IMG/VR virus record: IMGVR_UViG_3300033066_000693
Span: 64,001-128,000 of that record
Length of the DNA stretch: 64,000 nt
Direction: 5' to 3' (one strand)
DNA from: a virus
Below are positions 9,301 through 61,102 of the stretch, in pieces; positions within the stretch are counted from its first letter, which is position 1, and each line of letters starts with the position of its first letter. A program made the translations under genes and the position numbers. The notes under the pieces were generated by a model. The model saw only the letters and a program-made list of their open reading frames with translations. It did not search any database and was not told the origin of the DNA.

Positions 9301-10573
9301 CGCTAGCTATGGTTATTCCAGCAGCAAACGCAGGAACAGCGTCTATAAGAGCTTGCATTCCTTGTATTGCTTGTTCGATTATTGTTGTAGTTGTAAAGTT
9401 GTAAACAAACGAATGAGGTATGCCGTTTACGCTTCCTTCTATAGTAAACGTTCTTGCTGTAGCGTCTATAGCAATCTTGCTGAACAATACTCCGTGCGCA
9501 GAAATCCTTATTGCGAAACGACCGGGCTGAGGAACGGTAGTAAAGACTCCGGGCGAAGTATAGAACTGCGTATCAAAGAAATCAATAGCGAAGAATGTAT
9601 TTCCTCCGCTAGTATAAGGAGCATAAAACGCATTAGCTCCCGGGAACATTCCTATCGTAAACATAGGAACAGAACCGCCGCCATTAGCGATTCCATACTC
9701 GCAGGAAAGATTTAGACGGCGGAAGCCAGCAGGATTAGCGGTAGAGTTAAGAAATGGCCTCCATAGTATAGAGGAAATCTTGACAGCATATCCCGCTCCG
9801 TCGCTCTGAGAAGTAATAGGAGATACTCCTGTAGGACGGATATAGATAGCAGCTTGGTCTGTAGCATCTTCGCTGTAATCAACAAATATGAACGAGTCAG
9901 CAAGTTGCTTGCTAATGTTGATATAGTTGAATCGTCTTGCTCCTGAAATGGTAGATCCATTCTCTATGGATATCAAATCAGCAGTAGTAAAGATATCTCC
10001 TGCGTCGATTATGAGCTTCGCATTATCTCGATCTACATGAACGCCAATAGGATTGGTAAACTGAGTAGTATTTACCAAAGACCCGTCAAATGCCAAGAAA
10101 GGTATGACAAATGTTGTAGGCTCAATATGTATGTTTGTGTCGTCATATGGAATTGTGATATCGAAAACTCTAGCGCCAGAGCTAGCGATAGGAATAAGGC
10201 TCATCTGAAGGCTTGTGAGCGAACCTATACCAGTAGGCGAAGTAACTTCTGTCAATGAAACAGAGTTACGTATTCGACTAATTTGAGTAGATGTTAGTCC
10301 TGCTCCGCTAATGGTAATCGCAGGAGTTCCATTGATCGGATTTCTACGGATTTGAAACTGACCGCTATAAGTTGTCCCGTCTGCGTCTACGCCGGGAACG
10401 CCTTGAACGTCCAAAACGATCAAATCTCTTTCTATAGCTTGAGTCTGGGCGCTAATCGTAATATCAAACGCAAATGGTGATTCTTCGTCAATGACGGTAG
10501 GGCCACTTACAGACGTTGTACCGATAAAACGCTGTTCAGTTTTGATTATCTTCTGTACGAACGACTGCGCCAT
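6383..10573 (-). CDS. Giant putative virion structural protein (1396 aa), Thr/Ser/Asn/Gly-rich
   Basis: A 4.2-kb ORF overlapping its neighbours by 4 nt. The composition is fibre-like. No catalytic motifs recognised. Confidence 0.4.
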   Translation of the reverse strand: MAQSFVQKIIKTEQRFIGTTSVSGPTVIDEESPFAFDITISAQTQAIERDLIVLDVQGVPGVDADGTTYSGQFQIRRNPINGTPAITISGAGLTSTQISRIRNSVSLTEVTSPTGIGSLTSLQMSLIPIASSGARVFDITIPYDDTNIHIEPTTFVIPFLAFDGSLVNTTQFTNPIGVHVDRDNAKLIIDAGDIFTTADLISIENGSTISGARRFNYINISKQLADSFIFVDYSEDATDQAAIYIRPTGVSPITSQSDGAGYAVKISSILWRPFLNSTANPAGFRRLNLSCEYGIANGGGSVPMFTIGMFPGANAFYAPYTSGGNTFFAIDFFDTQFYTSPGVFTTVPQPGRFAIRISAHGVLFSKIAIDATARTFTIEGSVNGIPHSFVYNFTTTTIIEQAIQGMQALIDAVPAFAAGITIASGDHLRYAKCIYLNTVTYVGFSSLFESRALRITVPAINGRFEKRLVEGVGGTTLKEVFDWVVDTFGSYGLDINWNRDRVLGLDGVTQYLVGDPRNIRPWPDWENLPAIPVLFTRAGAGTSSTQTIYTSNANNPSLGAVSTPVSIYAQTNFFQSSLYEGQYVADSVASPELSFNTATTTTVEDVATAFQAIVDGSATSKFPAFVGIPSISLEFDVVSYYAAENSSYLGYHQNVHGLGGPTFPNTTPPSFSTLPGNVSFTPFGQVNEMRFGNGATSPSDDYQPITLTHNFQIPTVSGTTISELVNTNVNAAHGDLLHAELLDPIYASLDVSGLSPFSTPINVAGTIVNLSGSVLVPYIRTYPFSTNPTLTLLAQNIDRDWGPGRAGVLVTIDSGTVQHSDAIPANLLTDSQTITTGTQPHVFSGSVQVLPGVSTPTADVTLSFDITLPTTIPPTEESGIQVAIGGFERNGTFFPNTAPNQFFEPVQNSISPISFRVTDADVVYLLVRTRKTLNSSTYTSTASHYSGLATYSNGSPSYPLNPFAPTDPRFTAVWNEGGTLGVPAAVIVPVNANTIDVTIEDTTELESIHLQILNAPSSLDNFGFLAVNRTNNNKSQTKSRLGRAYGLVLDNRASWDVLISPEAILEVDRNGTLSHLGTLYSRTILNDDEGYDFTISTSLPAAIRNAVSIKPLPGNPQVWVLTLEYPVKKYLADLIAARNDENSLNGCSIDIDFLVTGRTSGVQGTARVSVFHDFTCVYDIGLCDYFWNLIDPPKPSGPEIIQNRLEIAYQTLIDCNNLTTPINNNISMNVPVLVSVGNIPTFMNGNALLLLKTLYTAEIQSFYFPTGNQLDTMEFSNCTPISLNLPLIRRLNKEFLLLPNNPDPIDDISEIQSLLQTETSYLWVRPKFYIPPTDVIKDCGENEIVVVGIGYTFKNWTNGFRQDDVIVGVGMLLPQGVFSSPEMKMCYRYYYNQDES

Positions 10574-10578
10574 TTATG

Positions 10579-13335
10579 TTATACCTTTACGAACTTTGCA
10601 GGTAGTTCAGTCCCGATTTCAACCTTAAGCTTCTTATCTTTGTCGTATTGGAGCATAACATGCGTTCCGCTCTTTTCTACAACCTTGTAAGTTCTATCTT
10701 TCCCTGACTGGAAAGCGACTCCAACGCCTTTGCTGCGGTAGATATCTCCTACAGATACCATAGAAGCTTCGCCGGGCGACCTATAAATCATGGTCTTGAC
10801 GCCTTCCCATTGGGGTTCTGGACCTTCGCTAATGAGACGGCCTCCCGTACCAAAAGACGAACCAGAGCTAGCGTCTGCTTGCTTAGCCTTACCATACCAA
10901 TTATTCGCTTGCTTTCCTTGGGGATTGCCGTACATAGTTTGCACTTCTCCTCTAATAGACTCTACAAACTGAACAGCTTGAGCTTGATCAGCGATATTGC
11001 CTGCCAGTTGCTCGTCCATTAGCTTGTCCTGTATGTACTTGATAAAGTTAGGCTGTCCCTTTGGCGGCTTTAGAGAAAGACCCGGGAACATCTTCTGTAG
11101 CATCATTCCGTCTACAAGAGGCTTCATCTGTATTGGAACAGGACGATTCCTATATTCATTCATCTGACGAATATGCTCTTCCTTAAGGTCATAGTCAGCC
11201 TGATCGCCTTCTTCCGACTTAGCCATAGTATCAGCTTGAGCATGCATCATTACAAACTGCCAGACATCCTCTCTATTCGAGCCGGGTATCTGCGTGTCTC
11301 TCATGAACTTACCCATAGACTTGTTTGACCAAGAATCGGTATGCGGCCTCATATGTTGCTTTACAACCATCTGAACGAACTTTCTATCGTCTTCTCCGAT
11401 TCCAATTCGCTTCAATATAGCGTCAGCGATGTCCGCAGACTTATCTTCATGTCCAGCATAGCCAAACTCTCCCGGATCATTAGGCTTTTCCTTACCAATC
11501 TCGGGATGAGCCTTGCCGTAATCATGGAATACAGCAGCCATGAGCATAAGAATGCGGTCGTTCTTATCAACCTTCTTTTGCTTCATGATTCTATCGAGGT
11601 TCTCGACAACTCTAAGAGTGTGTTCAAGAAGATTGAACTTATGGTGCCTGTTCTTTTGGTCCATAGTTAGCGGATGAAGACCCTGAACTTCGGGAGCGTC
11701 AAAAACAGCCTTGTCCATGCCTGTTGCAAACAAGGCACGAATGGCTTCTGCTGGGCGTTCTGCTCCGAACATTTTCAAAATTTCTGGTCCTGCCCTTTCT
11801 GGCGAAACCTTCTTGCGATAGGCTTCATGAACAGCAGGATTGGACATCGCATCCATCGTCCCCTTCTCAATAGTGGCCTTTGGGTATCTGCTAAAGAAGC
11901 GGAATACTCTAAGCATTCTAAGAGGGTCGTCCATGAACGTCTTAGTAGGGTCTAGCGGAGTGCGAAGCGTCATTGTCTGAAGGTCTTGCATTCCTCCGAC
12001 ATAATCTTCAATCTGTTGATTATTGACGTTGTAGAACATAGAGTTGATGGTCAAATCTCTTCTTTGCGCGTCAACTTTGGGATCGTTAGAGAGCTTCATA
12101 GTAGGGATTCTACTATCTCCATAGCTTTCGTCTCGCAGATTGACAAAATCAATCTTTAGTCCTGCGATATCAAGAGCGGTAGTCTCAAGATGCTTTGATT
12201 TTTCTGCATTCTGCTTAACAACGTATGCAGAGTCCATATTGATAGGAGCGTTTGGATTTGACTGCTTGTATATTTCAGCCTTATCAACAAACTGCTGTCC
12301 TGTCATCTTGTCTAGAGCAATATCTATGTCGTCGCTTGGAGTACCTAGCAACTTATCTCGAACCCAGCCACCAGCAACTCGGAATGTTATACCTAGGTTG
12401 AGCTTGTTATTGATATCCAATAGCGTAGCAAAAATCTGCTGCTCCTGCGTAGTAAGCTCTAGCTTAGGAGCTTGCTGAGGTTGCTGCATTGGTTGCGGCT
12501 GCTGTGGTTGCGATTGTTGAGGCGGCACTTGGGCTGCTTTCTGATGACCTATTTCTCTAACGATATTTTCCATGAAGCCAGACCTAGCCCAAAACTCGGC
12601 GCTAAAGTTCTCTGGCTTTCGCTTGAAATCCGCCTTATCTGGGCGTCTATCCCAGCGTATAGCAAGGATATCTCGGAGAGCGCTGATAGGATCAACAGAT
12701 CTACACTTCTCAGTATGAATTCCCAATGTTGGAAGATTGACTTCAAACAAGCGAAGAGGCTTTGCAAACTTGTATTTATCTATGCCGGGGACATAGGCTG
12801 TCGTATAGACAGGACAAGTCGGACAGAACTCTTGCACAATGCTCTCAACTACGGCTACCGAGTGGTATTCTCCGCTCTCAACAACTATAGAGCTAAGGCA
12901 GTCAGAGATGTCAATCCAGTTAGTATCAAAGACTGCCATGCCTCCAAATATATCAACCTTACATCCATTCTTTTCCGCAAGCTGCTTGGGGCCAAGATTT
13001 ACAACAACCTGAAGCTTTTGGTCCTTGATGATCTTGCCTGCAACAGCATTGGAGAACATGATTACCTTAGACAGCGCATGTATTCTGTTTGACGACAGAA
13101 CAGAACGCAACTGAATGATATCCATAGCAAAGACGCACTTGTTATAGAAATCGCCCTTCTCGAAAACCGCTTGGAGCAAGTGGCGTGGAGAGCTTTGCAG
13201 AATCTTTTCTGAATCGCGCACAGAAAGAAGAGAACGCAAGGCATGGTCTGCCTGCTCTTCGGTTAAACGAGAACCTTGATTGGCTTGATAGACCAACATG
13301 GCGTCTTGTATCATTTTGTCGAAGTCAGCGGCCAT
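10579..13335 (-). CDS. cca: tRNA nucleotidyltransferase (CCA-adding enzyme)/poly(A) polymerase head domain plus HD domain, embedded in a 918-aa protein with an unknown ~290-aa N-terminal domain, a Q/P-rich linker and a ~200-aa C-terminal extension
   Basis: GGWVRDKLLG...DIDIA is the class II nucleotidyltransferase head motif, and FHDYGKAHPEIGKEK is an HD-domain motif. The linker QQSQPQQPQPMQQPQQ lies at about 12470-12530. Confidence 0.65.
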   Translation of the reverse strand: MAADFDKMIQDAMLVYQANQGSRLTEEQADHALRSLLSVRDSEKILQSSPRHLLQAVFEKGDFYNKCVFAMDIIQLRSVLSSNRIHALSKVIMFSNAVAGKIIKDQKLQVVVNLGPKQLAEKNGCKVDIFGGMAVFDTNWIDISDCLSSIVVESGEYHSVAVVESIVQEFCPTCPVYTTAYVPGIDKYKFAKPLRLFEVNLPTLGIHTEKCRSVDPISALRDILAIRWDRRPDKADFKRKPENFSAEFWARSGFMENIVREIGHQKAAQVPPQQSQPQQPQPMQQPQQAPKLELTTQEQQIFATLLDINNKLNLGITFRVAGGWVRDKLLGTPSDDIDIALDKMTGQQFVDKAEIYKQSNPNAPINMDSAYVVKQNAEKSKHLETTALDIAGLKIDFVNLRDESYGDSRIPTMKLSNDPKVDAQRRDLTINSMFYNVNNQQIEDYVGGMQDLQTMTLRTPLDPTKTFMDDPLRMLRVFRFFSRYPKATIEKGTMDAMSNPAVHEAYRKKVSPERAGPEILKMFGAERPAEAIRALFATGMDKAVFDAPEVQGLHPLTMDQKNRHHKFNLLEHTLRVVENLDRIMKQKKVDKNDRILMLMAAVFHDYGKAHPEIGKEKPNDPGEFGYAGHEDKSADIADAILKRIGIGEDDRKFVQMVVKQHMRPHTDSWSNKSMGKFMRDTQIPGSNREDVWQFVMMHAQADTMAKSEEGDQADYDLKEEHIRQMNEYRNRPVPIQMKPLVDGMMLQKMFPGLSLKPPKGQPNFIKYIQDKLMDEQLAGNIADQAQAVQFVESIRGEVQTMYGNPQGKQANNWYGKAKQADASSGSSFGTGGRLISEGPEPQWEGVKTMIYRSPGEASMVSVGDIYRSKGVGVAFQSGKDRTYKVVEKSGTHVMLQYDKDKKLKVEIGTELPAKFVKV

Positions 13336-13544
13336 TAGGCTTTTTTCCTTCTACATCCGCCGCAGCCGGGCTTGGCTGGCGGAGGAGTTGGTTGTCTTGG
13401 TGGGGTCGGAGGCGGCGGCGGCTTGTTAGGCGGAGGCGTCTGAGGGTTAGATTGATTGAATCTTATGTTCTGTGCCATTTGCGGTGTTCCTAAACCTATC
13501 TTGTTAAGAAGAACTTTCTTCTGAAAGAGATCATTTATTGGCAT
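13335..13544 (-). CDS. Small Pro-rich protein (69 aa) ending in PGCGGCRRKKA
   Basis: ATG start with GGAG upstream. Its stop overlaps the downstream start as TAATG (translational coupling). Low-complexity composition lowers confidence. Confidence 0.35.
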   Translation of the reverse strand: MPINDLFQKKVLLNKIGLGTPQMAQNIRFNQSNPQTPPPNKPPPPPTPPRQPTPPPAKPGCGGCRRKKA

Positions 13545-16650: not shown

Positions 16651-16670
16651 TCATTCCAAAATAGAACAAC

Positions 16671-16700
16671 CACACCCTATCATCGGCTAAATAGGGCGTG
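16671..16700 (-). terminator. Hairpin (10-bp stem with one G.U, 10-nt loop) followed by a U-rich stretch on the minus-strand transcript, between the epimerase and the HNH gene
   Basis: cacaccctat / atagggcgtg form an inverted repeat. The minus-strand RNA continues GUUGUUCUAUUUUGG. Confidence 0.3.
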
Positions 16701-16727
16701 GAAGTTTAGTTTTGAAATATAGAGACT

Positions 16728-17663
16728 TTACAAGTTCAACGAGTTTATGGTTTTGTTCAACCCATTCTCGAAGGAAACCATTGGTTGATAACCTATTACT
16801 TCTTTCGCGAGGTCAATAGAAGCTCTCGTTCTCATGATATCTCCCTCTCGGAAAGGAGCTTGTTTGATATCAAACTTGAAGCGGCTCTTGAGCATATCAA
16901 GAATCTCATTGTTTGATATCTCAACGCCGCTAGCGATGTTCAAAGCTATACCATTGAGATTCTTCTTGCAAGTAGCCGCAAGGATGTTGGCATTTACAAT
17001 GTCGTCAACGAACACCATATCTCTGCTCTGTTCGCCTGTTCCGTCTTTTCGGAGCGGTTCGCCGTCTTTGATTGCGTTTAGCCAGCAGCTTACAGCAGTT
17101 GCGTATACTCCCTTGTTGTACTGATAAGGGCCATATGCATTGAAGTATCTTAGAGATACAGAATCTACATCAGAAGTCCTGCTATTAAGTTCTAGGAGTT
17201 GTTCGCAGATGTATTTCTGCAAACCATATGGAGATTCAGCTACTTTAGGAGAATCTTCGGTAACAGGAAGAACCTTGCTATTTCCATATACAGCAGCCGA
17301 AGACGCAAAAACTATTCGCCCTATATTGCGGCCTCTTCTAGCTTCGTCAAGCATTAGAACTGTTGTATCTTGAACATTATTACGGAACGATACATATGGC
17401 TTCTCTACAGAATAGAGAACGCTCGGCAGCGCCGCCTGATGGAAGACGACATCAAAATCATCAAACTTCGAAGTGATAACGTAGCGTCTAAGGTCTTGGA
17501 AATGAATCTTGACCGTGCCTGCTTTTCTCAGAATAAGCCTTCGCTTTTCATGATACTCGGTCTTGCCACTGTCAACAATGGTTACGTCCCAACCAAGCGA
17601 CATGCACTTGAGGGCGATGTTACATCCTATGAATCCTAGTCCGCCTGTTACGAGAACTTTCAT
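16728..17663 (-). CDS. NAD-dependent sugar epimerase/dehydratase (UDP-hexose 4-epimerase-like SDR)
   Basis: N-terminal Rossmann motif VLVTGGLGFIGCN. A YxxxK catalytic motif (YGLQKY). Length 311 aa. Confidence 0.65.
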   Translation of the reverse strand: MKVLVTGGLGFIGCNIALKCMSLGWDVTIVDSGKTEYHEKRRLILRKAGTVKIHFQDLRRYVITSKFDDFDVVFHQAALPSVLYSVEKPYVSFRNNVQDTTVLMLDEARRGRNIGRIVFASSAAVYGNSKVLPVTEDSPKVAESPYGLQKYICEQLLELNSRTSDVDSVSLRYFNAYGPYQYNKGVYATAVSCWLNAIKDGEPLRKDGTGEQSRDMVFVDDIVNANILAATCKKNLNGIALNIASGVEISNNEILDMLKSRFKFDIKQAPFREGDIMRTRASIDLAKEVIGYQPMVSFENGLNKTINSLNL

Positions 17664-20414: not shown

Positions 20415-21572
20415 CTAAACCCTCGTCTTCATAATGCTTTTCTGCATTCGATTGATTATCTTAGAGTCCATCGAACCGCATACGGTCATAAGGACAGTAT
20501 CGGCTATCAAAAACGCTTCATTCTCGCTAGTAGAAGATCTAATCAATATTGAGGCGTCTTCCAAAGCCTTGACAATCAGATACAGGTCTTTCCTGTTATA
20601 CAGATCAACTGCTGGCGTTCTCCCATTGAAACCGTCCATAGCAGAAGTAAGAGGCATGGTGGACCAAAGAGTTGCAGGCTTTCCAGCATTTGGCCCAGTC
20701 TCTACTAGATTGACCTTGGTTCTAGCAAAGAACCCCATTCCGTCATAAGAAATCTTACGCATCGCCAAGGCCTGAGCCAGAATGGTCTGTCTATCAACCT
20801 TTGAGGCCTTCTTCTCTTTGAGGAATAATAGAAGCCTAAACTTCCATAGCAGGGTACTCATCATTTGCGCAATTCCTTCGATTGCGTTGTCTGAGAGGGA
20901 CGACGCCTTGGACAGCATATTTAGGCATTTCTCGTAGTCTTTCTCGTCGCAGGCGTTGAGCAAGTCCCAAATGACAAAGTTCTCGTAGAAGACCGCAGTT
21001 GCCACTACGTCAAACGTGTCATAACTCTTCTTGGTTGGAGCATAGAGAATCAATCTTCGAAGCGCCATCTCAAGAACGTCGATGGGGATTCCCTTACCGC
21101 CAGAATCAATACCGCTGTTCTCGGCCAAGGCAATCGCCGCGTTCTGCTCAATCGCTACGCCAAGCTCTGTCGCTCGACGGACTATCCATCCAGAAGCTTC
21201 TCTGACTGGAACGCTTGTATCAAAGTCATAAATCTTTCCGACCTTTTCTACAATCGAAAAAAGAGCCTTTTCTTTGGTAGGATTGATCATAAAGAAGACT
21301 ACGAATACGTCGTCAGCAATAGTCTCTAGAGAAGCTTTGAGCTTCTTTTTTTGAGTCTCCGTCATATCTGGAATGCCAAAGACCATGACGATTCTCTTGG
21401 TAGAGAAGCAATGATTGCTCTCGATTTCATTGAGAAGCTCCATTGGGTCGCTATCTTCGGTAATATGGACAGGAGAAGCGTCCTTGAACTTCTCTTTGAT
21501 CTTGTCAAAGAGTTCCTTGGCGCGGTGATATCCGCCGCTTACCCATGCTACGTTTATTTTCTTGTCGCTCAT
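20415..21572 (-). CDS. hypothetical protein, 385 aa; possible clamp-loader delta/HolA-like accessory subunit
   Basis: Loose resemblance to the pol III delta N-terminal pattern (KRIVMVFGIPDM). It sits next to the clamp gene. This is weak inference. Confidence 0.25.
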   Translation of the reverse strand: MSDKKINVAWVSGGYHRAKELFDKIKEKFKDASPVHITEDSDPMELLNEIESNHCFSTKRIVMVFGIPDMTETQKKKLKASLETIADDVFVVFFMINPTKEKALFSIVEKVGKIYDFDTSVPVREASGWIVRRATELGVAIEQNAAIALAENSGIDSGGKGIPIDVLEMALRRLILYAPTKKSYDTFDVVATAVFYENFVIWDLLNACDEKDYEKCLNMLSKASSLSDNAIEGIAQMMSTLLWKFRLLLFLKEKKASKVDRQTILAQALAMRKISYDGMGFFARTKVNLVETGPNAGKPATLWSTMPLTSAMDGFNGRTPAVDLYNRKDLYLIVKALEDASILIRSSTSENEAFLIADTVLMTVCGSMDSKIINRMQKSIMKTRV

Positions 21573-21585
21573 GCTAAAACATGAA

Positions 21586-21601
21586 GCCCTATTTCTAGGG
21601 C
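21586..21601 (-). terminator. Short hairpin (gcccta-tttc-tagggc) followed by UUCAUGUUUUAG on the minus transcript, between the clamp gene and the next gene
   Basis: Inverted repeat within a 42-bp intergenic gap. Confidence 0.25.
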
Positions 21602-21614
21602 GTCATGCAATGGT

Positions 21615-22901
21615 TTAGTTTTTCTTGAGAGTTGCAAAGAACTCAGAATACCGCTCTTGAATGCCGTCGTCATTGGGCTTCTTGAGCGTCAAAGGATCTC
21701 GGAAATCTGGCGCTGCGTAGTGACGAATGATAACTGGCATGCTCTCGTCTTCAATCTCGATCTGAATATGGTCTTCGTCGTCGGCTTGATTGATAACGTC
21801 CTTGATGTAGTTGGTATTGCAACGAATGCTCAACTCTTGAGTATCCTCATTGGTAGCAATGTTATCTATGGCAATCTTTCGGTTGGACCGTAGGCCCAAT
21901 TCGCTCTTGGCCTGTATGATCTTTTTATCAAGGTCGAAGCTGAGCAAACAATTCGGCAACTGGTTCTGCTTCTTAGCGTCGTCAGTATAGGTTGCGATGA
22001 CGCCTTTGAGAGCATTGCGCCAGTTACCTACCTTGGTAACAAAGTTGAACTTGCTCGGTCTACGAAGAACCTTCTCCTCGTCAGGCCATGCAACCGTTGG
22101 GTCGCAAGTATACATGATAACCTTGACATTATCGCATGTAACAACGATGCAGCGGTCCTGAGACTCGATATGGACATTCTCTCCCTTGAGAAGGGACAGA
22201 ACGCCTGTCAAGGTTGGCGTCTGGGCATTTGGGAAGTTGATGATCATATCGCCCTTGGCATCGCTAATATTGGCTCCCTCAAGCTCAACAATAGCAAAGC
22301 GATTCCCTGTTCCAGCGGCAAATCTTAGGCTTCCCGAGTTGAAAGAACGAAGAATCCAATAGGTGAACATCTTTAGCTGCTGCTGGAATCCATGAGCAAA
22401 GACAAGCTTGTTTGCATAGGACGTAAATACGTCTCTGCGAAGAGTAATCTTGCTTGTCTTCTTGGTGCTTGTAGCTTGCTGATGAAACTCAACAACTGTA
22501 TCAAAAACCGCAAGAGACTGCATCTCTTCAATATCAGACTCTTTCATGATAACCAGTTCCTTTCCAACCAAGGAACCGTCTGCTGCCTTCTTCTCTTGCA
22601 GTTCCACAATGACGGTATCGCTTTCAGCGAAGGAACCAAGCACATTTTGGAAATCTGTAACCGCAAGAGTGACAGAGCCGGGCTCAATCATCTTATAGTC
22701 AAGACCGCTGTACATGATGTCGTTGATTTCATTCTTTGCGCTTACGTGCCCGCCGTCAGCTACAGCCTCTAGCGCTGTAGGGGTTGCGGTAAGCGTTACC
22801 AGAGACGCATGCGGATAGTCGTCCGCCGTTCCCTTAGTTGCTACTGTAAAAATGGGCTTTACGCCCGCTGCCAACCCCTCAACCTTTGCCTTGAACTTCA
22901 T
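21615..22901 (-). CDS. DnaN-like DNA polymerase sliding clamp (beta clamp family)
   Basis: The C-terminal LSIRCNTNYIKDVINQADDEDHIQIEIEDESMPVIIR parallels the conserved beta-clamp C-terminus (fNpkYllDal...l.l.....P.li). The repeated domain pattern, the 428-aa length and the adjacency to the clamp loader all fit. Confidence 0.5.
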   Translation of the reverse strand: MKFKAKVEGLAAGVKPIFTVATKGTADDYPHASLVTLTATPTALEAVADGGHVSAKNEINDIMYSGLDYKMIEPGSVTLAVTDFQNVLGSFAESDTVIVELQEKKAADGSLVGKELVIMKESDIEEMQSLAVFDTVVEFHQQATSTKKTSKITLRRDVFTSYANKLVFAHGFQQQLKMFTYWILRSFNSGSLRFAAGTGNRFAIVELEGANISDAKGDMIINFPNAQTPTLTGVLSLLKGENVHIESQDRCIVVTCDNVKVIMYTCDPTVAWPDEEKVLRRPSKFNFVTKVGNWRNALKGVIATYTDDAKKQNQLPNCLLSFDLDKKIIQAKSELGLRSNRKIAIDNIATNEDTQELSIRCNTNYIKDVINQADDEDHIQIEIEDESMPVIIRHYAAPDFRDPLTLKKPNDDGIQERYSEFFATLKKN

Positions 22902-23775
22902 CGCTTTCTCCTTCGTCTTTGTCGTACTCGTTTGCTATTTCGTTTGCTTTCTTCTTCACTCGCTGAATCGCATTGTCAATGCTTCTAGCATTGATTGGCT
23001 CGTCATGCTTCTCGTTGGCCTCGTACTTTTCAAGTATCTCTTTGGCCTTATGCTTGATTCGGCTAAGGGCGTTATCGACGCCCTTGATATTTACCCTGAC
23101 CTTTGCACGCTTCGCATTTATTCGGTCTGCTATCTCGTCGTATGAATAGCGCTGAGCATAAAGCAGATACACTTCTTTCTCGAATCGAGAAAGAGAGTTG
23201 AGTAACATGGTTTGAAGATTGCGGTAGTATTCGTCTTCTCCAACGGAGGTTATCAAATCCTGACCGTCTGGATCGGCAATAACATGGGCTAAAGATAGAT
23301 CATCTTCGCCGCCATTACCGTTGTTTGATTCTTTGTCTAATGAAACGCTGTGATTTAGAACTCTCTTCTTATTCTGATACGAAGACTTGAACTCTGTAGC
23401 CAAATGTCTTCGTATGCACAATAATGCGAACTTATCGAACGGAGCAGGGCCTTCGCCTGATCCTCTTGTCTTGTCGTAGTCTTTGATAGCTTTGAACTGA
23501 AGGGCAACAAGAGCTTCCTGCATTATGTCGTCGTGATTACAACCCGGAATATTAAACCTAGATATCAGTTTTTGAATCTTCGGGATAAGTTTCTGAAGTA
23601 TTGCTTCAAAAGCCTTATCAGTTGTTTCTTTGTCTTTGTTCTTTCTGATTATGTTTATGAGTTGAACATACTTCAGGTTGTCATCATATTCTTGCTTAGC
23701 GGGATCTTTTACTTCGGCAACTGGTTTGGACTTCTTAGCTCTTTTTGCCCCAACCTTCTTCGTGCGTTTGGGCAT
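22879..23775 (-). CDS. sigma-70 family RNA polymerase sigma factor (regions 2 and 4 present)
   Basis: Region 2 (DIMQEALVALQFKAIKDYDKTRG...FDKFALLCIRRHLATEF) and the region 4 HTH (YSYDEIADRINAKRAKVRVNIKGVDNALSRIK) are recognisable. Confidence 0.6.
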   Translation of the reverse strand: MPKRTKKVGAKRAKKSKPVAEVKDPAKQEYDDNLKYVQLINIIRKNKDKETTDKAFEAILQKLIPKIQKLISRFNIPGCNHDDIMQEALVALQFKAIKDYDKTRGSGEGPAPFDKFALLCIRRHLATEFKSSYQNKKRVLNHSVSLDKESNNGNGGEDDLSLAHVIADPDGQDLITSVGEDEYYRNLQTMLLNSLSRFEKEVYLLYAQRYSYDEIADRINAKRAKVRVNIKGVDNALSRIKHKAKEILEKYEANEKHDEPINARSIDNAIQRVKKKANEIANEYDKDEGESDEVQGKG

Positions 23776-23786
23776 TCATGACTCCA

Positions 23787-24896
23787 TTACCCAGCCGCTT
23801 TATTCTCCGTTCTGTTGAAGATGATAGAACAAATCACAAACTTCTCTAGCATTGTCTGCGCGTTCATGTTCAAAGAAATGCCCTTGTTGACTTCGGAGAT
23901 CAGATCAATCATTTGAAGCAAGAGCGGTATTGAAACATTTTGCGCCTGATGAGAGTAGCGTTTCTTTTCTTCTTCGGTCAGGAATAGGAGCTTAGCGGTG
24001 TCTTTCGCGGTCTTAATAACAAGCAGAGTCCTAATATGACCTACAAGGCCGTTAAGAACCTCCCCGACATCGCGCCCATCTCCCATAATATGATCGATGA
24101 TTCGCATAGCCTCACCGGCGTCGGGTTTCACTATAACATCGACCAAATCGAAGAATTTGTTCTCATCTATAGCAGATAACGCCTGCTGAGCAAGCTCTGC
24201 TGTAATTTTTGCACCGTTAGCAACGGTTATCATAATCTGCAAGTTTTGCAAAGAGTTCCTGACTGAACCCTTGGAAAGCCTTGCTGCTATCTTCAATGCT
24301 GCCTCGTCTACGTCTATGTTTTCAGCAGCTACGACCCTCTTCAGATTGACAAGGATTTGGTCCCATGCAACCTTGTTGAATCGTAGAGGAAGACAACGGC
24401 TATGTATCGTGTCTTTTAGGTCTTCTGCGTTAGTCGTACAGAGGATGAAAATGACATTCGGCGGCGGCTCTTCAATCATCTTCAGCGCAGCTTCCGCAGC
24501 GGCTCCGCTTAGCCTATGAGCCTCGTCAATAATAACGAAGCGATACTTAGAGCGAATAGGCGCATACCGAATAGCGTCCTTTAGCTCTCGAATCTCGTCA
24601 ACCTTGCCCTTGGAGCCTGCGTCAAACTCCATAACGTCGATGGACTTGCCATCGAAGATTGCTTGAATGTCTGGGTCTTCAAGGTCTGGTTCAGTTGTCA
24701 TACCTCTCTTATCGTTTACGGCTGCCGCAAAGATACGAGCGCTAGAAGTCTTGCCGCATCCAAACTTACCTGCAAAGATGTAGGCATGATGGAGCTTTCC
24801 AGACTGAATCGAGTTGGTCAAAACTCTAGTAACTGCTTCTTGACCAATAAGATCAGCAAGCTTCTTGGGGCGGTACTTATTTGCGAGTATGCTCAT
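23787..24896 (-). CDS. AAA+ clamp loader ATPase (T4 gp44/RFC/pol III gamma-like)
   Basis: KYRPKKLADLIGQ, a Walker A (GKFGCGKTS), DEAH-like (IIDEAHRL) and the SRC motif (HSRCLPLRF). Confidence 0.75.
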   Translation of the reverse strand: MSILANKYRPKKLADLIGQEAVTRVLTNSIQSGKLHHAYIFAGKFGCGKTSSARIFAAAVNDKRGMTTEPDLEDPDIQAIFDGKSIDVMEFDAGSKGKVDEIRELKDAIRYAPIRSKYRFVIIDEAHRLSGAAAEAALKMIEEPPPNVIFILCTTNAEDLKDTIHSRCLPLRFNKVAWDQILVNLKRVVAAENIDVDEAALKIAARLSKGSVRNSLQNLQIMITVANGAKITAELAQQALSAIDENKFFDLVDVIVKPDAGEAMRIIDHIMGDGRDVGEVLNGLVGHIRTLLVIKTAKDTAKLLFLTEEEKKRYSHQAQNVSIPLLLQMIDLISEVNKGISLNMNAQTMLEKFVICSIIFNRTENKAAG

Positions 24897-29846: not shown

Positions 29847-29863
29847 AAGCGTGTATCGACAAG

Positions 29864-29896
29864 AAAAGGGCGCGAGGTTTATGCCTCACGCCCTTT
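29864..29896 (-). terminator. Rho-independent terminator-like hairpin (13-bp GC-rich stem, 6-nt loop) followed by UUUUCUU on the minus-strand transcript, immediately upstream of the topA start
   Basis: aaaagggcgcgagg tttatg cctcacgcccttt. The minus-strand RNA reads AAAGGGCGUGAGG-CAUAAA-CCUCGCGCCCUUUUCUUG. Confidence 0.45.
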
Positions 29897-54133: not shown

Positions 54134-55122
54134 GAGAGTATCGTGCCAAAACTACTCAACCGCTGCTCGGCTAGCTTGACGTATTCTTTTTTACCTTCAA
54201 TTCCAATGAAGTCTCTTTGATTCTGCATTGCCACTACACCTGTCGTCCCAGAACCGCAGAATGGATCTAAGATAACACACTGGTTTCTTTCTTCAGTCTT
54301 GCAAGAGCATGCCTTATCCCATCCTATAGTTCTTGTCTCCGTAAGATGTCTTCCTGAATCCCTATTGGCAAAGCCGGTATTGTCTATCTTGTTATTGAGG
54401 CCGGGCCTTGTAGCATACCGATGCTTCTCAATCCTACGAACATAGGAAGCTCCGCATTCCTTGCAGCATCCGTAATCGCTTGTTGACGCCAAGATACAAG
54501 GCTCTATAAGCTTAGGAGGGAATACGGCAAAATGAGCGCCCTTATATGAGGCAATAGGAACGTTCCAAACGTCTCTCTTGAGTCGTTTCTTGAATGTTCC
54601 GTCCTTATTCATTTCGGTAGCGTTTTCTTTAGTCGCCTCCGTATCGTAATAGTAGTCTTCTTTCTTCGAAAACAGGAAGAAGTATTCATGGGAACTAATG
54701 GGACGGTCGCTTACTCCGCCCGGCAGAGGATTAGGCTTAGCCCAAATGATATCGCTTCTCAAGTACCATCCGTCCGCTCGCATAGCGAAAGCAAACATCC
54801 AAGGAATGCCTATTAGGTCATTAGGTTTGATTAGATCATAAGGCTTAGACGCATAAGTATCTCCAAGGTTCACCCATAACGTGCCGTCGTCTCGAAGAGC
54901 TTTACGCATCAATGAAAAAACGCCCACGAGCTTTTGGATATACTCTTCGGGCGTCTTTTCTAAGCCTATCTGTTTCGAAAACCCGTAGTCCCTCATCTTG
55001 TAGTACGGCGGAGACGTTATGGAAGAATGTATAGTCTTTTCAGGAAGGCTAGATAGACCTTCTCTTACGTCGTCAAAGATTAGTTTGTAGCTCATTGATA
55101 CCTCTTTCAAGGTATCGACCAA
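54130..55122 (-). CDS. beta-class DNA methyltransferase (N4-cytosine or N6-adenine; the SPPY motif favours N4C)
   Basis: Motif IV TSPPY near the N-terminus and motif I DPFCGSGTTG near the C-terminus give the beta-class permutation. No adjacent restriction enzyme, so it is an orphan MTase. Confidence 0.7.
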   Translation of the reverse strand: MVDTLKEVSMSYKLIFDDVREGLSSLPEKTIHSSITSPPYYKMRDYGFSKQIGLEKTPEEYIQKLVGVFSLMRKALRDDGTLWVNLGDTYASKPYDLIKPNDLIGIPWMFAFAMRADGWYLRSDIIWAKPNPLPGGVSDRPISSHEYFFLFSKKEDYYYDTEATKENATEMNKDGTFKKRLKRDVWNVPIASYKGAHFAVFPPKLIEPCILASTSDYGCCKECGASYVRRIEKHRYATRPGLNNKIDNTGFANRDSGRHLTETRTIGWDKACSCKTEERNQCVILDPFCGSGTTGVVAMQNQRDFIGIEGKKEYVKLAEQRLSSFGTILS

Positions 55123-58554: not shown

Positions 58555-59159
58555 TGATGGTTGAGCTTTGGGTCTATAAACCTAATCGACTCTTCCACGG
58601 CCTTTTCTGAAGGCAATTCCATTCCCTCAAAACAAAACTCTCGTAACCTGCCTATTGTTTCTGATGGATTCTTAGTAAGCTCATTGAAGTCGATTGCTAG
58701 ATTAGGAAGATCGTATCTCTGTATAAATGCTTCTCGCCTTGTCCTAACAAGATAATGCATGTATTCTATCTCTTCTCTAGTTTTTTCTGGATACTTTAGG
58801 AGAGAACTGCGAATACAACCTTCATAAGCTCTATCTATAGAAACAACTCTGCATTCTGCATGCGGAACGATGTACTTGCCCAGCGTTGATATTTGAGGCA
58901 TCTTGAGGCCCCATAGGGAAAGCTTATTTCTTTGAATAACGTAGTCTTCTATTCGTTTGTCTAGCTTTTCTTCTTCAGTACAGGTAGTAGAAAACTCCAC
59001 CAAATCTCGAAAGGCCATATCCTCAAAATGGCCTTTAGGATTCAGCGGAGTTTTTCCTAGCAAGGAGTCGCCCATATGGATTCCAAAAGTATGCAGAGCG
59101 CCAGCAACAGCCGACGAACCGCTACCCTGAGGTCCAATGACAAGAATACTCCGAGACAT
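58539..59159 (-). CDS. P-loop protein (sulfotransferase- or kinase-like)
   Basis: N-terminal ILVIGPQGSGSSAV is a P-loop-like motif. No further confident assignment. Confidence 0.3.
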   Translation of the reverse strand: MSRSILVIGPQGSGSSAVAGALHTFGIHMGDSLLGKTPLNPKGHFEDMAFRDLVEFSTTCTEEEKLDKRIEDYVIQRNKLSLWGLKMPQISTLGKYIVPHAECRVVSIDRAYEGCIRSSLLKYPEKTREEIEYMHYLVRTRREAFIQRYDLPNLAIDFNELTKNPSETIGRLREFCFEGMELPSEKAVEESIRFIDPKLNHQWECV

Positions 59160-59746
59160 TAGATATCAAGTTTGTCAAATGCATCAGCAGCCGTAGCATT
59201 GGACAAGGAAGGTATGCTAGCAATCGTAATCTCTGGCTTCGGGAACGATATGCTTACCGAAACATCATCAGGGCTTTTAGCAACAAAACCAGACGTATTG
59301 TTGTTTCTCTCAAGCTCGTCCAAAAGACTGTTCAAGTCTTTCTTCTTGAACTTCCAGTTCTGTTCGGAAACCTCTCCAAACTTGCCCAAAGATTCCAAGT
59401 GAGACTTCAGACCTTCTTCGTCAGTAATAGTCCAAGTTCCCTTGCTATTACGAAGAGATACCTTACCAACACCGGGGAAATCAAGAGACTTGTCTTTTGA
59501 CTTAGCCATGCACTTGCGAATAGCGTCTTTGAGCTTCTCGACTTTATCTTCTTCGCTGGTAATTTGAGCGTCAGCAAGAGCGGCTCGTCTCTTCTTGAGT
59601 TCCTTCAAGAAGTCAACCTTGCGATTCATTTCCTTGATCGCAGACAGAACATTTTCGATTTCGTACTTGTCTTTTAGTTCTTCGGTGCCGTTGATAAGAT
59701 TCCACAAACGGCTAGTATCTAAACCTGATTCTGTTTCGTCGTACAT
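59159..59746 (-). CDS. possible Mu Gam-like DNA-end-binding/host-nuclease inhibitor protein
   Basis: Size (195 aa), N-terminal coiled coil and a C-terminal beta-rich region with loose resemblance to the Gam family. Weak. Confidence 0.25.
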   Translation of the reverse strand: MYDETESGLDTSRLWNLINGTEELKDKYEIENVLSAIKEMNRKVDFLKELKKRRAALADAQITSEEDKVEKLKDAIRKCMAKSKDKSLDFPGVGKVSLRNSKGTWTITDEEGLKSHLESLGKFGEVSEQNWKFKKKDLNSLLDELERNNNTSGFVAKSPDDVSVSISFPKPEITIASIPSLSNATAADAFDKLDI

Positions 59747-59756
59747 TGAAAACTCC

Positions 59757-60068
59757 TTAGCGAGGCCCCACCTTTAGGACAATAGCTGTCTTATCCCCTC
59801 CATCGAACGAAGCGCTGTCGAAAGAAGGCTCAACCACTAGGTCTATGCCTTTTTTAGCCGCTTCACCTCTAGCAATGATTATGGCCTTCCACGCATTATT
59901 GCCTGATGAAGCTCCAACCGTTTTGAGCTTTGCATGTCCATGCTTGCCTATAACAGTCGTAATAGCAGAAGCCAGACTTTTAACATAATCCTTGCGGGCT
60001 TGATCGTCTGCGAAATTTGATTCGCCCTTTACTTTTAGGATTGTTATGTCTGGTACGTCGTTAGACAT
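59757..60068 (-). CDS. SpoVS-like protein (stage V sporulation protein S family, Alba-like fold)
   Basis: ITILKVKGESN...LASAITTVIGKHGHAKLKTVGASSGNNAWKAIIIARGEAAKKGIDLVVEPSF...DGGDKTAIVLKV parallels SpoVS (VLKVSAKSSP...AGAL...AEIQAIGAGALNQAVKAVAIARGFVAPSGVDL...PAF...DGEERTAIKL). Start taken at the internal MSNDVPD; the track ORF extends to 60140. Confidence 0.55.
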   Translation of the reverse strand: MSNDVPDITILKVKGESNFADDQARKDYVKSLASAITTVIGKHGHAKLKTVGASSGNNAWKAIIIARGEAAKKGIDLVVEPSFDSASFDGGDKTAIVLKVGPR

Positions 60069-60082
60069 TGGTGCCGACTCCT

Positions 60083-61102
60083 TTATTCGAGTACACCATA
60101 GAATTTCAATCGTTGTTGCAGAAGATCTGGCTTTTCCCATACCTTGCTACTGTGACATATCGACTGAAATTCGCAATACCTGCACTCGTATTCGTCCTTA
60201 GTAAGAGGACGAGGAGGCGGAAGTAGTTTCTCTTCTACCATGTCGTTCATCTTCGATGCTTGCTCTTGAATCTTTGACCAAAGATCAGGATTACGATCTA
60301 TCTTGTAAATCTTAGTTGAAGAATCGTCTTTGTTTTCATAGATAAGCACTCCATAATCCAAATCTAGGATATTGCAATAGATGACAAGCTGAGTTCTGTA
60401 GACCAGTGACGGTCCATGATCAAGCTTGCTCTTGAAGTTGAAAGAGTTGATGCTCTTCATATCAAGAACAATTGGTTTCTTTGGAAGATCTTCAACCTTG
60501 AAAAGAACGTCTACGGCATTCCCGCTCTTATACTTCTCTGGATCGAACTTCGAGAAGTCTAGAATCTGATCGCAATGCCCTCTGAAGTTGAGAGCCTTAT
60601 CTTCAACCGTTATTTCATGATACTCAAACTTGGTATTTCCGCACAAACATGCGTTTGGCTTGAAAACTCCAAGCTTTTCCTGCCTGCCATATACTCTGGT
60701 TTGGAAGTTGGCTAAAACTTCCGGAACCTTCAATCCGTCTCTTTGAAGAATATCCGGAAAGTAGTTGCCGTCTTCATCCCACAAATGACAGCATGGATTG
60801 GTGCATTGCCAAACGCCTCGTAGGACTCCTATCTTCTCAAAGTAAGAAGCCCAACGAGCATGAAGGCTATGCCCAGTATCGAATATACGCAGAGTCTTAG
60901 GGTCTTTGTCTTCTGGCTCAGTCTTGACCCAACCTCGCTCAGAATACCTTTGCATTTGCATTCTGCGCAAGCATCCGCCGAAGGCAGAAGGGTGATAAAC
61001 CTCATGACCTCTCGGAGGGCCATTGAGCGCAGACCATCGCAAGTGCGTATTGACAACGTTCATGATATTCGTAACTTCTGGCGGCTGTGCTACAGGAGGC
61101 AT
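60083..61102 (-). CDS. PD-(D/E)XK nuclease with a C-terminal Cys cluster (Cas4/RecB-nuclease-like exonuclease)
   Basis: GHCDQIL ... VLDMKSI give a D...D/E.K arrangement. C-terminal CRYCEFQSIC plus an N-terminal Cys are consistent with the Cas4-type Fe-S ligands. Confidence 0.5.
   Translation of the reverse strand: MPPVAQPPEVTNIMNVVNTHLRWSALNGPPRGHEVYHPSAFGGCLRRMQMQRYSERGWVKTEPEDKDPKTLRIFDTGHSLHARWASYFEKIGVLRGVWQCTNPCCHLWDEDGNYFPDILQRDGLKVPEVLANFQTRVYGRQEKLGVFKPNACLCGNTKFEYHEITVEDKALNFRGHCDQILDFSKFDPEKYKSGNAVDVLFKVEDLPKKPIVLDMKSINSFNFKSKLDHGPSLVYRTQLVIYCNILDLDYGVLIYENKDDSSTKIYKIDRNPDLWSKIQEQASKMNDMVEEKLLPPPRPLTKDEYECRYCEFQSICHSSKVWEKPDLLQQRLKFYGVLE

Follow-up and report, generated by a model that had tools for sequence, protein, structure and literature searches.

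A SigH-like sigma factor, a SpoVS-family protein and a DnaJ co-chaperone in the replication and recombination gene modules of an uncultured huge phage

Phages with large genomes can encode proteins that redirect, or are predicted to recruit, the central machinery of their bacterial hosts. Switching of the host RNA polymerase by phage sigma factors is documented for phage SPO1 (PMC13401047), and the principle of redirection by sigma factors extends to the group 2 jumbo phages (PMC7824862). Full-length DnaJ occurs in the Lak phages and other huge phages, and members of the SpoVS family, which is predicted to bind nucleic acid (PMC2732212; PMC11621453), have been reported in viromes (PMC8940887). 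Here we examine a stretch of 64,000 nucleotides (nt), positions 64,001-128,000 of the IMG/VR record IMGVR_UViG_3300033066_000693 (hereafter "the window"), that encodes a sigma-70-family factor, a SpoVS-family protein and a DnaJ. A preliminary description of this DNA had read the three genes together as the sign of a spore-forming or otherwise differentiating host whose dormancy is manipulated by the phage. We find that the sigma factor belongs to a large phage-specific, SigH-like clade that is locked into a replisome operon, that SpoVS is linked recurrently to recombination genes of phages, and that a short directional element, GTCGATA, recurs in the same lineage. The reading that we favor, and hold to be probable though by no means certain, is that all three proteins are parts of the phage's own information-processing modules, in which the sigma factor would redirect RNA polymerase, SpoVS would act as a nucleic-acid partner in recombination and DnaJ would recruit the DnaK of the host.

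The open reading frame (ORF) that had been assigned to the sigma factor is real, lies on the minus strand where it had been placed (Table 1) and specifies both region 2 and region 4, as had been claimed. Five NCBIfam models of the SigH type align over residues ~35-253 (E from 1.9e-29 to 4.2e-21), and the PDB entry 3mzy, "RNA polymerase sigma-H factor", matches at 1.2e-11 with an alignment that runs through residue 252; the Pfam matches for region 4 (PF08281, 24.8 bits versus a gathering score of 25.7) and region 2 (Sigma70_r2, 17.3 bits versus 24) fall just under their thresholds. The AlphaFold model, built with 50 homologues (mean predicted local distance difference test, pLDDT, of 83), consists of a basic N-terminal tail (residues 1-24), a sigma-2 four-helix bundle (~49-151; pLDDT >90 and Foldseek probability 1.0 to sigma factors), a sigma-4 bundle (174-257) that a disordered linker (152-173) separates from sigma-2, and a C-terminal extension in which the region-4.2 helix occurs a second time (264-287). 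Within the PDB, Foldseek ranks the Bacillus subtilis SigH model 9a4r_A first (E 5.5e-08), followed by SigD and the primary sigma factors. The earlier placement of this protein in the context of SigF and SigG holds as far as the sigma-70 family is concerned, but NCBIfam and Foldseek assign it to the SigH type instead; matches to the SigF and SigB/F/G models are weak and limited to region 2 (TIGR02980, 22.7 bits versus a cut-off of 234; NF005514, 32 versus 372; only residues 23-106 align). With its canonical sigma-4 it does not group with the late sigma factors of the T4 gp55 type either, and its sole PHROG match at E <=0.01 is to the generic sigma family phrog_1740. The protein is a sigma-70 factor of the SigH type and not a SigF/G, classical ECF or gp55-like factor. 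It is nevertheless not an orthologue of SigH, because every score is less than half of the curated equivalog cut-off (NF006147, 102.7 versus 212; TIGR02859, 86.1 versus 294.8). The family as a whole behaves in the same way: all 50 of the 50 members that were scored match the five SigH-type models best and none reaches an equivalog cut-off, and the SigBFG, SigK and FliA models match just 1-7 of the 50, weakly. From this domain composition we infer that the protein would bind core RNA polymerase and confer promoter specificity on it.

A large protein collection contains 316 homologues of the sigma factor at E <=1e-5. The best 120 of these 316 are 43-100% identical to it (the top match being the same protein), many homologues are encoded on contigs of 230-550 kb, and IMG/VR holds 15 loci of the family on viral contigs of 101-548 kb. 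Nothing close to the window protein was found among deposited phage genomes. A scan of 185,579 species-representative genomes, which was pattern-based and hence gives a biased cellular sample, returned a single locus of the family, whose 11-kb contig had been assigned to a Patescibacteria bin; among the cellular proteins of these genomes the nearest, from Clostridia, Armatimonadota, candidate division WS1 and "Zipacnadia", are 27-36% identical. In a neighbour-joining tree of the MAFFT alignment, midpoint-rooted and without bootstrap support, the phage proteins form one clade (41-67% mutual identity) that lies outside all of the cellular groups sampled. Their mean identity is 30% to the Clostridia type and 26-27% to the Armatimonadota and WS1 types, and at most 36% to any cellular protein, whereas the cellular SigH-like groups are 38% identical to each other. 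These sequence comparisons mark the clade as an old, phage-specific branch and not a recent capture.

Specific to the family are the basic N-terminal tail (isoelectric point, pI, 10.4) and a longer turn in the helix-turn-helix of region 4. Within the sigma-4 recognition helix, the residues K231, D234, N235, L237, R239, K241 and K243 are invariant across 50 members, as would be expected if the whole lineage shares one promoter element. The C-terminal extension that bears the repeat (window 22879-23010, sigma residues ~256-298) places a second copy of the 4.2 helix behind the first (VDNALSRIKHKAKEI, then IDNAIQRVKKKANEI, the same at 9 of 15 positions). Such a second copy occurs in at least 17 of 115 members, among them the window protein and P0002, P0004, P0039, P0048, P0063, P0065, P0076 and P0103, which are scattered over the clade and carry linkers of variable length; one possibility is that the repeated helix serves as a decoy or as an autoinhibitory helix.

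The location of the sigma gene is as distinctive as its sequence. It lies between the genes for a clamp-loader ATPase and a divergent DnaN-like sliding clamp, and overlaps the latter, the Shine-Dalgarno sequence and ATG of the clamp gene being situated within the last sigma codons. A delta-like clamp-loader subunit comes next, and dnaJ lies ~3.5 kb farther on past sigma in the same gene string. Relatives with contigs of 135-421 kb share the order topoisomerase I (Top1), deoxynucleoside monophosphate kinase, clamp loader, sigma, clamp, delta-like subunit, DnaJ and a protein that joins a CCA-adding/poly(A) polymerase to an HD domain. By local tblastn, the clamp loader adjoins sigma upstream in every one of 20 loci, even where the sigma identity is as low as 43%, and the clamp is found downstream in 19 of the 20, either adjacent or within ~1.2 kb; the delta-like subunit is conserved in relatives as well. 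Eighteen loci extend far enough to reveal DnaJ, and 12 of them, which include redundant ones and stand for ~8 distinct phages, have it downstream of sigma. Because it is missing in the other, more distant 6 loci, DnaJ is not core to the whole lineage and is conserved in the nearer sublineages only. The position of the sigma gene between clamp loader and clamp, and its overlap with the start of the latter, suggest that sigma would be co-expressed with the replisome genes; it would then most likely bind the core RNA polymerase of the host and direct it to phage promoters, by analogy with the sigma cascades of SPO1 and T4.

The DnaJ likewise proved to be real and full-length, on the minus strand, with three domains above their Pfam cut-offs. 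The J domain (PF00226, 90.3 bits) carries HPD at residue 31; the zinc finger (PF00684, 46.6 bits) is made up of the motifs CKTCNGEG at 133, CTKCKGKG at 150, CNKCEGSG at 177 and the degenerate CEKCKNGL at 193; and the C-terminal domains (PF01556, 88 bits) span residues 106-322. The linker (67-105), with 2 Gly and 3 Phe (13%) and one DVF, is a vestigial G/F region, unlike the Gly/Phe-rich linker of a class A (type I) DnaJ, and the score against the bacterial DnaJ equivalog TIGR02349 (276.3) is below the cut-off of 377.2. An exhaustive HMMER search returned a handful of lineage-internal representatives that are 36-52% identical and then a plateau at 33-40%, where the next-best representatives are metagenomic proteins, several of which are encoded on these very huge-phage contigs; DnaJ therefore points to no recent cellular donor and gives no hint of the host. 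The window showed neither an Hsp70 nor a GrpE, and because no phage Hsp70 is seen there it is the DnaK/Hsp70 of the host that the phage DnaJ would bring in, perhaps for the assembly or remodeling of phage complexes. The suggestion of a proteostasis takeover in the preliminary description seems reasonable in this sense, given the intact HPD and zinc finger, and the J-proteins of jumbo phages have also been predicted to recruit host Hsp70 (PMC7824862; PMC12619734). The polymerase-HD protein that is kept downstream of DnaJ in relatives (898-1003 residues there) is encoded in the window at 10579-13335 on the minus strand; its 918 residues comprise a CCA-adding/poly(A) polymerase head, an HD domain and an unassigned N-terminus of ~300 residues.

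The third gene is also real, on the minus strand, and specifies a true member of the SpoVS family, as had been proposed. PF04232 matches at 5.3e-17 (61.8 bits versus a cut-off of 24) over profile positions 11-82 of 83, and the Thermus SpoVS structure 2eh1 matches at 1.9e-08. The AlphaFold model (pLDDT 91) has a beta-alpha-beta-alpha-beta-beta topology, which Foldseek aligns with SpoVS of B. subtilis (9a7h_B, 38% identity, template-modeling (TM) score 0.87) and of Thermus (TM 0.85) at E values of 5e-09 to 1.5e-07; the Alba proteins, in contrast, are matched at E ~4e-03 or worse and at TM ~0.5-0.68, so that the protein does not belong to a different family of the Alba fold. The start that gives 103 residues is supported by its AAAGGAG Shine-Dalgarno sequence, which a longer ORF of 127 residues lacks, and by the lengths of the homologues (103-105 residues, with PF04232 found in 35 of 36 of them). 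In the PDB entry 9a7h, B. subtilis SpoVS is part of an integrative crosslinking model with YunD. YunD is annotated as an enzyme of the metallophosphoesterase or nucleotidase type, and this pairing may be relevant to the nuclease that neighbors SpoVS in phages.

In 13 of 13 loci, which represent nine lineages and of which one comes from a relative at 55% identity with a contig of 467 kb, the SpoVS gene lies between the genes for a Cas4-like nuclease and a Gp157/Gam-like protein. The gene string of which these are part reads DNA polymerase III alpha subunit, a protein similar to single-stranded DNA-binding protein (SSB), RecA/UvsX, Toprim primase, nuclease, SpoVS, Gp157-like protein, UvrD helicase and methyltransferase, and SpoVS is the best conserved of its neighborhood in 7 of 8 distinct relatives (for example, 84% versus 48-78% for the neighbors). 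Sigma and SpoVS occur together on five viral contigs, where, as in the window, 34-48 kb lie between them. Among unrelated cultured phages, BCD7 of Bacillus has a nuclease of the Cas4 type and the resolvase RusA near SpoVS, and in Streptomyces phage BRock a RuvC-like resolvase adjoins it, with an SSB nearby. With this context in mind, we picture the phage SpoVS as a small, basic and probably dimeric nucleic-acid-binding protein that would most likely work with the Cas4-like nuclease, the Gp157/Gam-like protein, RecA/UvsX and the primase in recombination-dependent replication or repair; alternatively, it might be a DNA-binding modulator of transcription. The earlier remark that all three genes are uncommon in phages is right only in part: SpoVS is present in just 11 of 50,697 deposited phage records, but sigma factors are routine in large phages, J-proteins occur sporadically in jumbo phages (PMC7824862) and DnaJ is encoded by the Lak and other huge phages.

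Table 1. Positions in the window of the three proteins under study, of the genes that flank them and of GTCGATA sites
Feature	Position	Strand	Basis or remark
SigH-like sigma-70-family factor, 298 aa	22879..23775	-	NCBIfam, PDB 3mzy, AlphaFold/Foldseek
Clamp-loader ATPase (DNA polymerase III gamma/tau-like), directly upstream of sigma	23787..24896	-	PF13177 1.4e-36; phrog_5846 3e-69
Divergent DnaN-like sliding clamp	21615..22901	-	Weak matches: DNA_pol3_beta_3, phrog_947 "processivity factor"
DNA polymerase III delta-like clamp-loader subunit	20415..21572	-	PF06144 1.2e-05, 25.7 bits versus 21
DnaJ/Hsp40 co-chaperone, 365 aa	18281..19378	-	Pfam J, zinc-finger and C-terminal domains; motif scan
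SpoVS-family (Alba-superfamily) protein, 103 aa, pI 9.3	59757..60068	-	PF04232, PDB 2eh1, AlphaFold/Foldseek
Cas4-like PD-(D/E)XK nuclease, directly upstream of SpoVS	60083..61102	-	PF12705 22.5 bits versus 22; phrog_1706 5e-28
Gp157 / Mu Gam-like protein, directly downstream of SpoVS	59159..59746	-	PF05565 28.6 bits, equal to the cut-off; phrog_253 8e-08
GTCGATA within the 3'-terminal part of the Cas4-like gene, 89 nt ahead of the SpoVS start codon	60158..60164	-	Codon conservation
GTCGATA immediately behind a terminator hairpin and 7 nt ahead of the topoisomerase I start codon	29854..29860	-	Same in lineage loci L001, L094 and L097
GTCGATA upstream of an N6/N4 DNA methyltransferase gene	55113..55119	-	Orthologous sites in lineage loci L107 and L109

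The names of the two families invite the interpretation that the phage infects an endospore-forming member of the Bacillota and deploys a captured SigH-like sigma factor and SpoVS so as to trigger, prevent or shift the timing of sporulation or dormancy, while DnaJ helps in the takeover of the host. The best-scoring models for the sigma factor are indeed entitled "sporulation sigma factor SigH", the closest structures of both sigma and SpoVS are those of B. subtilis, and the nearest cellular sigma group by identity is that of the Clostridia. The pairing of the two genes mirrors a real regulatory link in Bacillus, where spoVS is sigma-H-dependent (PMC8510167), sporulation-like sigma factors had earlier been found only in phages of Bacillota and can alter the yield of spores (PMC9429907), and Shine-Dalgarno usage in the window is fairly high (62% of genes versus a background of 21%), an observation that weighs weakly against a Bacteroidota host. 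Each of the two genes is, however, fixed in a replisome or recombination operon and not in a variable accessory region (with DnaJ conserved in the nearer sublineages), the sigma factor scores far below the SigH cut-offs and its clade lies outside all cellular groups, and no other sporulation-related genes are seen in the window. Promoters that match the sigma-H consensus are not enriched there either: AGGAWWW-N10-14-GAAT was found 2 times versus 3.07 expected, a comparison of low power since the window contains few promoters. Both families extend, moreover, to phyla not known to form endospores, the SigH-like factors to Armatimonadota, WS1 and Zipacnadia, and SpoVS to all of the Chloroflexi, Thermotogae and Deinococcus-Thermus genomes examined (PMC2732212), so that membership in the SpoVS family does not imply a role in sporulation. 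One phage that carries SpoVS is a Stenotrophomonas phage, and one member of the sigma family comes from Tara Oceans, which argues weakly against an endospore-forming host. We regard the proposal of a spore-forming host whose dormancy is under phage control as unsupported, though not disproved; in our judgment it is very unlikely.

A search for the DNA sequences that the sigma factor might read was carried out in the window together with 24 lineage loci (25 sequences, 465 kb). The heptamer GTCGATA occurs in the non-coding portion of these sequences (7.3% of the total) 22 times in the sense and 2 times in the antisense orientation, versus 37 sense and 17 antisense occurrences in coding sequence. 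It is commonly found 7-40 nt before a start codon and often directly after terminator hairpins, 7-11 nt before the Top1 start codon; it precedes an ORF of 203-237 residues in seven loci, and the sigma gene is itself preceded by it, at a distance of 40-100 nt, in L098 and L100-L104, which are distant sublineages. Sites in addition to those of the window (Table 1) include position 3017 of L001, 4684 of L094, 4227 of L097, 9951 of L098, 9949 of L100, 9922 of L102, 9914 of L103 and 9896 of L104. Across lineages the Cas4-like gene contains the element as well, 81-102 nt ahead of the SpoVS start, and every one of nine lineages has the codons xxG-TCG-AT(A/G) there, against a codon background in which TCG accounts for 10% of Ser codons, ATA for 25% of Ile codons and G for 21% of third positions. 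The amino acid that precedes TCG varies (Q, T or R) and neighboring synonymous sites vary freely. There is thus good evidence for selection at the nucleotide level on the GTCGATA upstream of SpoVS, and the distribution of the heptamer is consistent with a directional, promoter-like element that would include a candidate internal promoter for SpoVS. Another occurrence, within the sigma gene itself (23073-23079), was rejected as a signal: its codons are not conserved in relatives. Within the window alone, k-mer enrichment upstream of 71 genes detected nothing other than the Shine-Dalgarno sequence, sites of the sigma-70 type are present at chance frequency (29 versus 27), and most of the apparent gaps between genes hold small ORFs.

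These observations can be assembled into a self-contained circuit in which the phage-specific SigH-like sigma factor, made with the replisome, would read a lineage-wide promoter of the GTCGATA type, and in which this element would drive the genes for topoisomerase, methyltransferase and, in some sublineages, sigma itself, as well as an internal promoter for SpoVS, the latter acting as a nucleic-acid-binding protein of recombination modules in phages generally. We offer this circuit tentatively and think it rather unlikely in its entirety; were it true, it would provide the first mechanistic context for SpoVS, a "sporulation" family that has long been uncharacterised.

The same promoter data bear on the possibility that the phage imitates a regulon of its host without any involvement of sporulation, its sigma factor taking the place of a SigH-like alternative sigma factor (for stationary phase, competence or stress) of a non-sporulating host and turning on host genes that are useful to the phage, with SpoVS as a modulator of transcription. 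SigH-like factors do exist in non-sporulating lineages, and they are described as controlling competence genes in the non-sporulating Firmicutes Listeria and Lactobacillus (PMC4754846, PMC3364868); loss of spoVS, for its part, alters sigma-K- and sigma-D-dependent expression in B. subtilis (PMC2732212). Yet a GTCGATA element that is phage-borne and strand-biased, and recognition residues that stay invariant in a lineage from widely differing environments, speak for a target carried by the phage itself and not for host-specific promoters, and the divergence of the sigma factor from its cellular relatives (26-30% mean and at most 36% identity) is a further point against such imitation. Counted in favor of such imitation is the pattern of the region-4.2 helix, K.(I/V)DNAL.R(I/V)K.K, which is also that of cellular SigH. 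On balance, imitation of a host regulon seems unlikely to us.

Several observations also count against our preferred reading, that the three proteins serve the phage's own information-processing modules, and should be set beside the evidence for it. To our knowledge, a biochemical activity of SpoVS has been demonstrated in no organism, and its gene context is uninformative in 2 of the 4 cultured phages (Stenotrophomonas phage TS-12 and Lysinibacillus phage LysYB1). GTCGATA could equally be read by a host sigma factor or bound by another factor, and the window has few promoters and no structural (late) genes. What the analysis demonstrates are the identities of the domains, the folds, the structure of the clade, the synteny and the statistics of the motif; the binding of RNA polymerase, the promoters addressed in a cascade, the binding of nucleic acid and the recruitment of DnaK are inferred. 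DnaJ is absent within 10 kb of sigma in the 6 more distant loci mentioned above, its nearest sequence relatives carry no host signal, and the names of the bins of metagenome-assembled genomes (MAGs) in which relatives are found are inconsistent (Competibacteraceae, Patescibacteria). Finally, the dependence of spoVS on sigma-H in B. subtilis and B. thuringiensis (PMC8510167) leaves room for the pairing of the two genes to represent a captured host regulon.

The window as a whole is part of an uncultured huge phage and covers a region of replication, recombination and glycan synthesis. All of its sizeable genes are on the minus strand, in strictly one direction and tightly packed, at a GC content of ~44%. 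Strong terminator-like hairpins with T runs on this strand, at 16670-16701, 21586-21601 and ~29862-29895, fill the few true intergenic gaps and mark operon boundaries in an otherwise continuous gene string. RNA polymerase, a second sigma factor and an anti-sigma factor were not found in the window, and neither were any Rfam families. The relatives reside on contigs of up to ~550 kb that IMG/VR classes as viral; no close relative of the lineage was found among deposited phage genomes, and papers on the moraphage, phage G and the myxophage do not describe it.

One might ask whether the DNA derives from a phage at all, or rather from a very large plasmid, a mobile element of another kind or a small cellular genome of an unusual type, in which the three genes would be housekeeping copies. 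The replisome is of the bacterial type (tau/gamma, delta and a beta-like clamp, with a DnaE-like polymerase in relatives), the window contains no capsid, portal or terminase genes, contigs reach 460-550 kb and some relatives have been binned as Patescibacteria or Competibacteraceae. The classification of the relatives by IMG/VR stands against a non-viral origin, as do a match to a virion structural PHROG (8.7e-18), a PhageMetallopep domain, many HNH endonucleases and the Gp157/Gam-type gene of the window, the dense and unidirectional genes without detected tRNA, rRNA, ribosomal-protein or other core-metabolism genes in the window, and the high divergence of sigma, DnaJ and SpoVS from cellular copies. 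A non-viral origin strikes us as highly improbable.

Contigs of the lineage have been deposited inside bacterial MAGs, such as L011 (JAIPJN010000021.1) and the contig for protein P0093 (NJL70096.1), under the labels Patescibacteria and Candidatus Competibacteraceae; these are probably artefacts of binning. A different sort of label affects the phage collection, in which the matches H1-H4, H20-H29 and H47-H50 are cellular-looking SigH, TopA and DnaJ on unannotated fragments. The records in question bear names such as "Listeria phage LM", "Staphylococcus phage SA 1306 Kay" and "Enterococcus phage Efs", and they appear to contain host DNA.

Other parts of the window deserve brief mention. A large island for the biosynthesis of glycans and nonulosonic acid occupies ~30000-54000 on the minus strand, with further parts at 16728-17663 and 46-1596. 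Its families, which are given here for the island as a whole and not ORF by ORF, include NeuB (3.5e-61), a CMP-sugar cytidylyltransferase, an MptE-like protein, a TylF O-methyltransferase, several GT2 glycosyltransferases, a sialyltransferase-like PHROG match, three NAD-dependent epimerase/dehydratases, a phosphoheptose isomerase-like protein and a HAD hydrolase. The ORF at 1606-2982 (minus strand) is the only one in the window that matches a virion structural protein PHROG (8.7e-18), and it also shows a short match to an N-terminal Hint (intein-like) motif at residues 269-297. Two very long ORFs on the same strand, one of 1128 residues at 3000-6386 and the other of 1396 residues at 6383-10573, have neither PHROG nor significant Pfam matches, except that the former has a weak C-terminal match to VWA. 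A small ORF of 47 residues at 13336-13530 (minus strand) is extremely proline-rich (PQTPPPNKPPPPPTPPRQPTPPPAKPGCGGC) and has a local GC content of 52%.

A phage sigma factor, a phage J-protein and a SpoVS-family protein are each of a kind that was known already. What is new here is a large, phage-specific SigH-like clade locked into a replisome operon, the recurrent link of SpoVS to phage recombination genes and the GTCGATA element. These findings have a bearing on annotation, since labels such as "sporulation-specific sigma factor" (K03091, which lumps SigH, SigE, SigF, SigG and SigK; PMC10294663) and "stage V sporulation protein S" have been read as signs of viral control over sporulation, for example in viromes of marine oxygen-minimum zones (PMC8940887). 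In the lineage described here both genes are conserved parts of replication and recombination modules, and such labels alone should not count as evidence that a virus manipulates dormancy. That SpoVS recurs next to genes for nucleases, resolvases and SSBs in three phage groups unrelated to one another constitutes a testable lead, and for a lineage that is large, widespread and without counterpart among deposited phage genomes, the sigma factor and a candidate promoter element open a way into the program of gene expression.

It remains to place the three proteins among their described counterparts. With SigH (Spo0H) of B. subtilis and the SigH-like factors (TIGR02859, NF006145-NF006148; 3mzy; 9a4r_A) the phage sigma factor shares the layout of sigma-2, short linker and sigma-4, and sequence signatures in regions 2 and 4.2. 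It differs from them in scores that are less than half of the orthologue cut-offs, in its low mean identity, in its separate clade, in the addition of the basic N-terminal tail, the longer region-4 turn and, in a subset, the second 4.2 helix, and in the location of its gene in a phage replisome operon; the promoter RNAGGAWWW/RNNGAATWW, which is that of SigH, is not enriched in the window. It resembles gp28 and gp33/34 of SPO1, and gp55 of T4 with its partners gp33 and the gp45 clamp, in being a phage sigma factor that would be made with early or middle replication genes and would turn host RNA polymerase toward later genes of the phage. The late transcription of T4 is linked to the sliding clamp (gp45), a connection that the position of the window sigma gene beside clamp genes recalls. 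Coupling to the clamp in the manner of T4 was nonetheless dropped as an explanation, since a clamp-binding-type motif is present in just 4 of 115 C-terminal tails of the family and so is not conserved. Nor is the window protein homologous to the minimal sigma factors of the gp55 type, because it has a full sigma-4 and is matched by no PHROG other than the generic one.

The SigF and SigG homologues of Bacillus phages (Schwartz, Lehmkuhl and Lennon 2022, PMC9429907) are similar to the phage sigma factor in that the best TIGRFAM match is to a "sporulation" sigma model, and the best-hit rule applied by these authors would label the window protein as sporulation-like; it is, in distinction to those homologues, of the SigH type, and it is a core gene of a cosmopolitan huge-phage lineage without a close cellular donor. 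The phage SpoVS has the family, the fold (TM 0.85-0.87, 29-38% identity) and the small size and basic character of the Bacillus and Thermus proteins (PF04232; 2eh1/2ek0; 9a7h_B), but it has in addition an N-terminal extension of ~20 residues and a loop insertion after strand 1, and its gene is lodged between nuclease and Gam/Gp157-like genes in a recombination module where that of Bacillus is sigma-H-dependent. As for DnaJ, it shares with the J-proteins of the Lak and other huge phages, the moraphages and the J-domain protein of RB43 the presence of a J domain without an Hsp70 in the window, and is set apart from the DnaJs of Lak and other phages, to which it is 25-34% identical, by its vestigial G/F linker.

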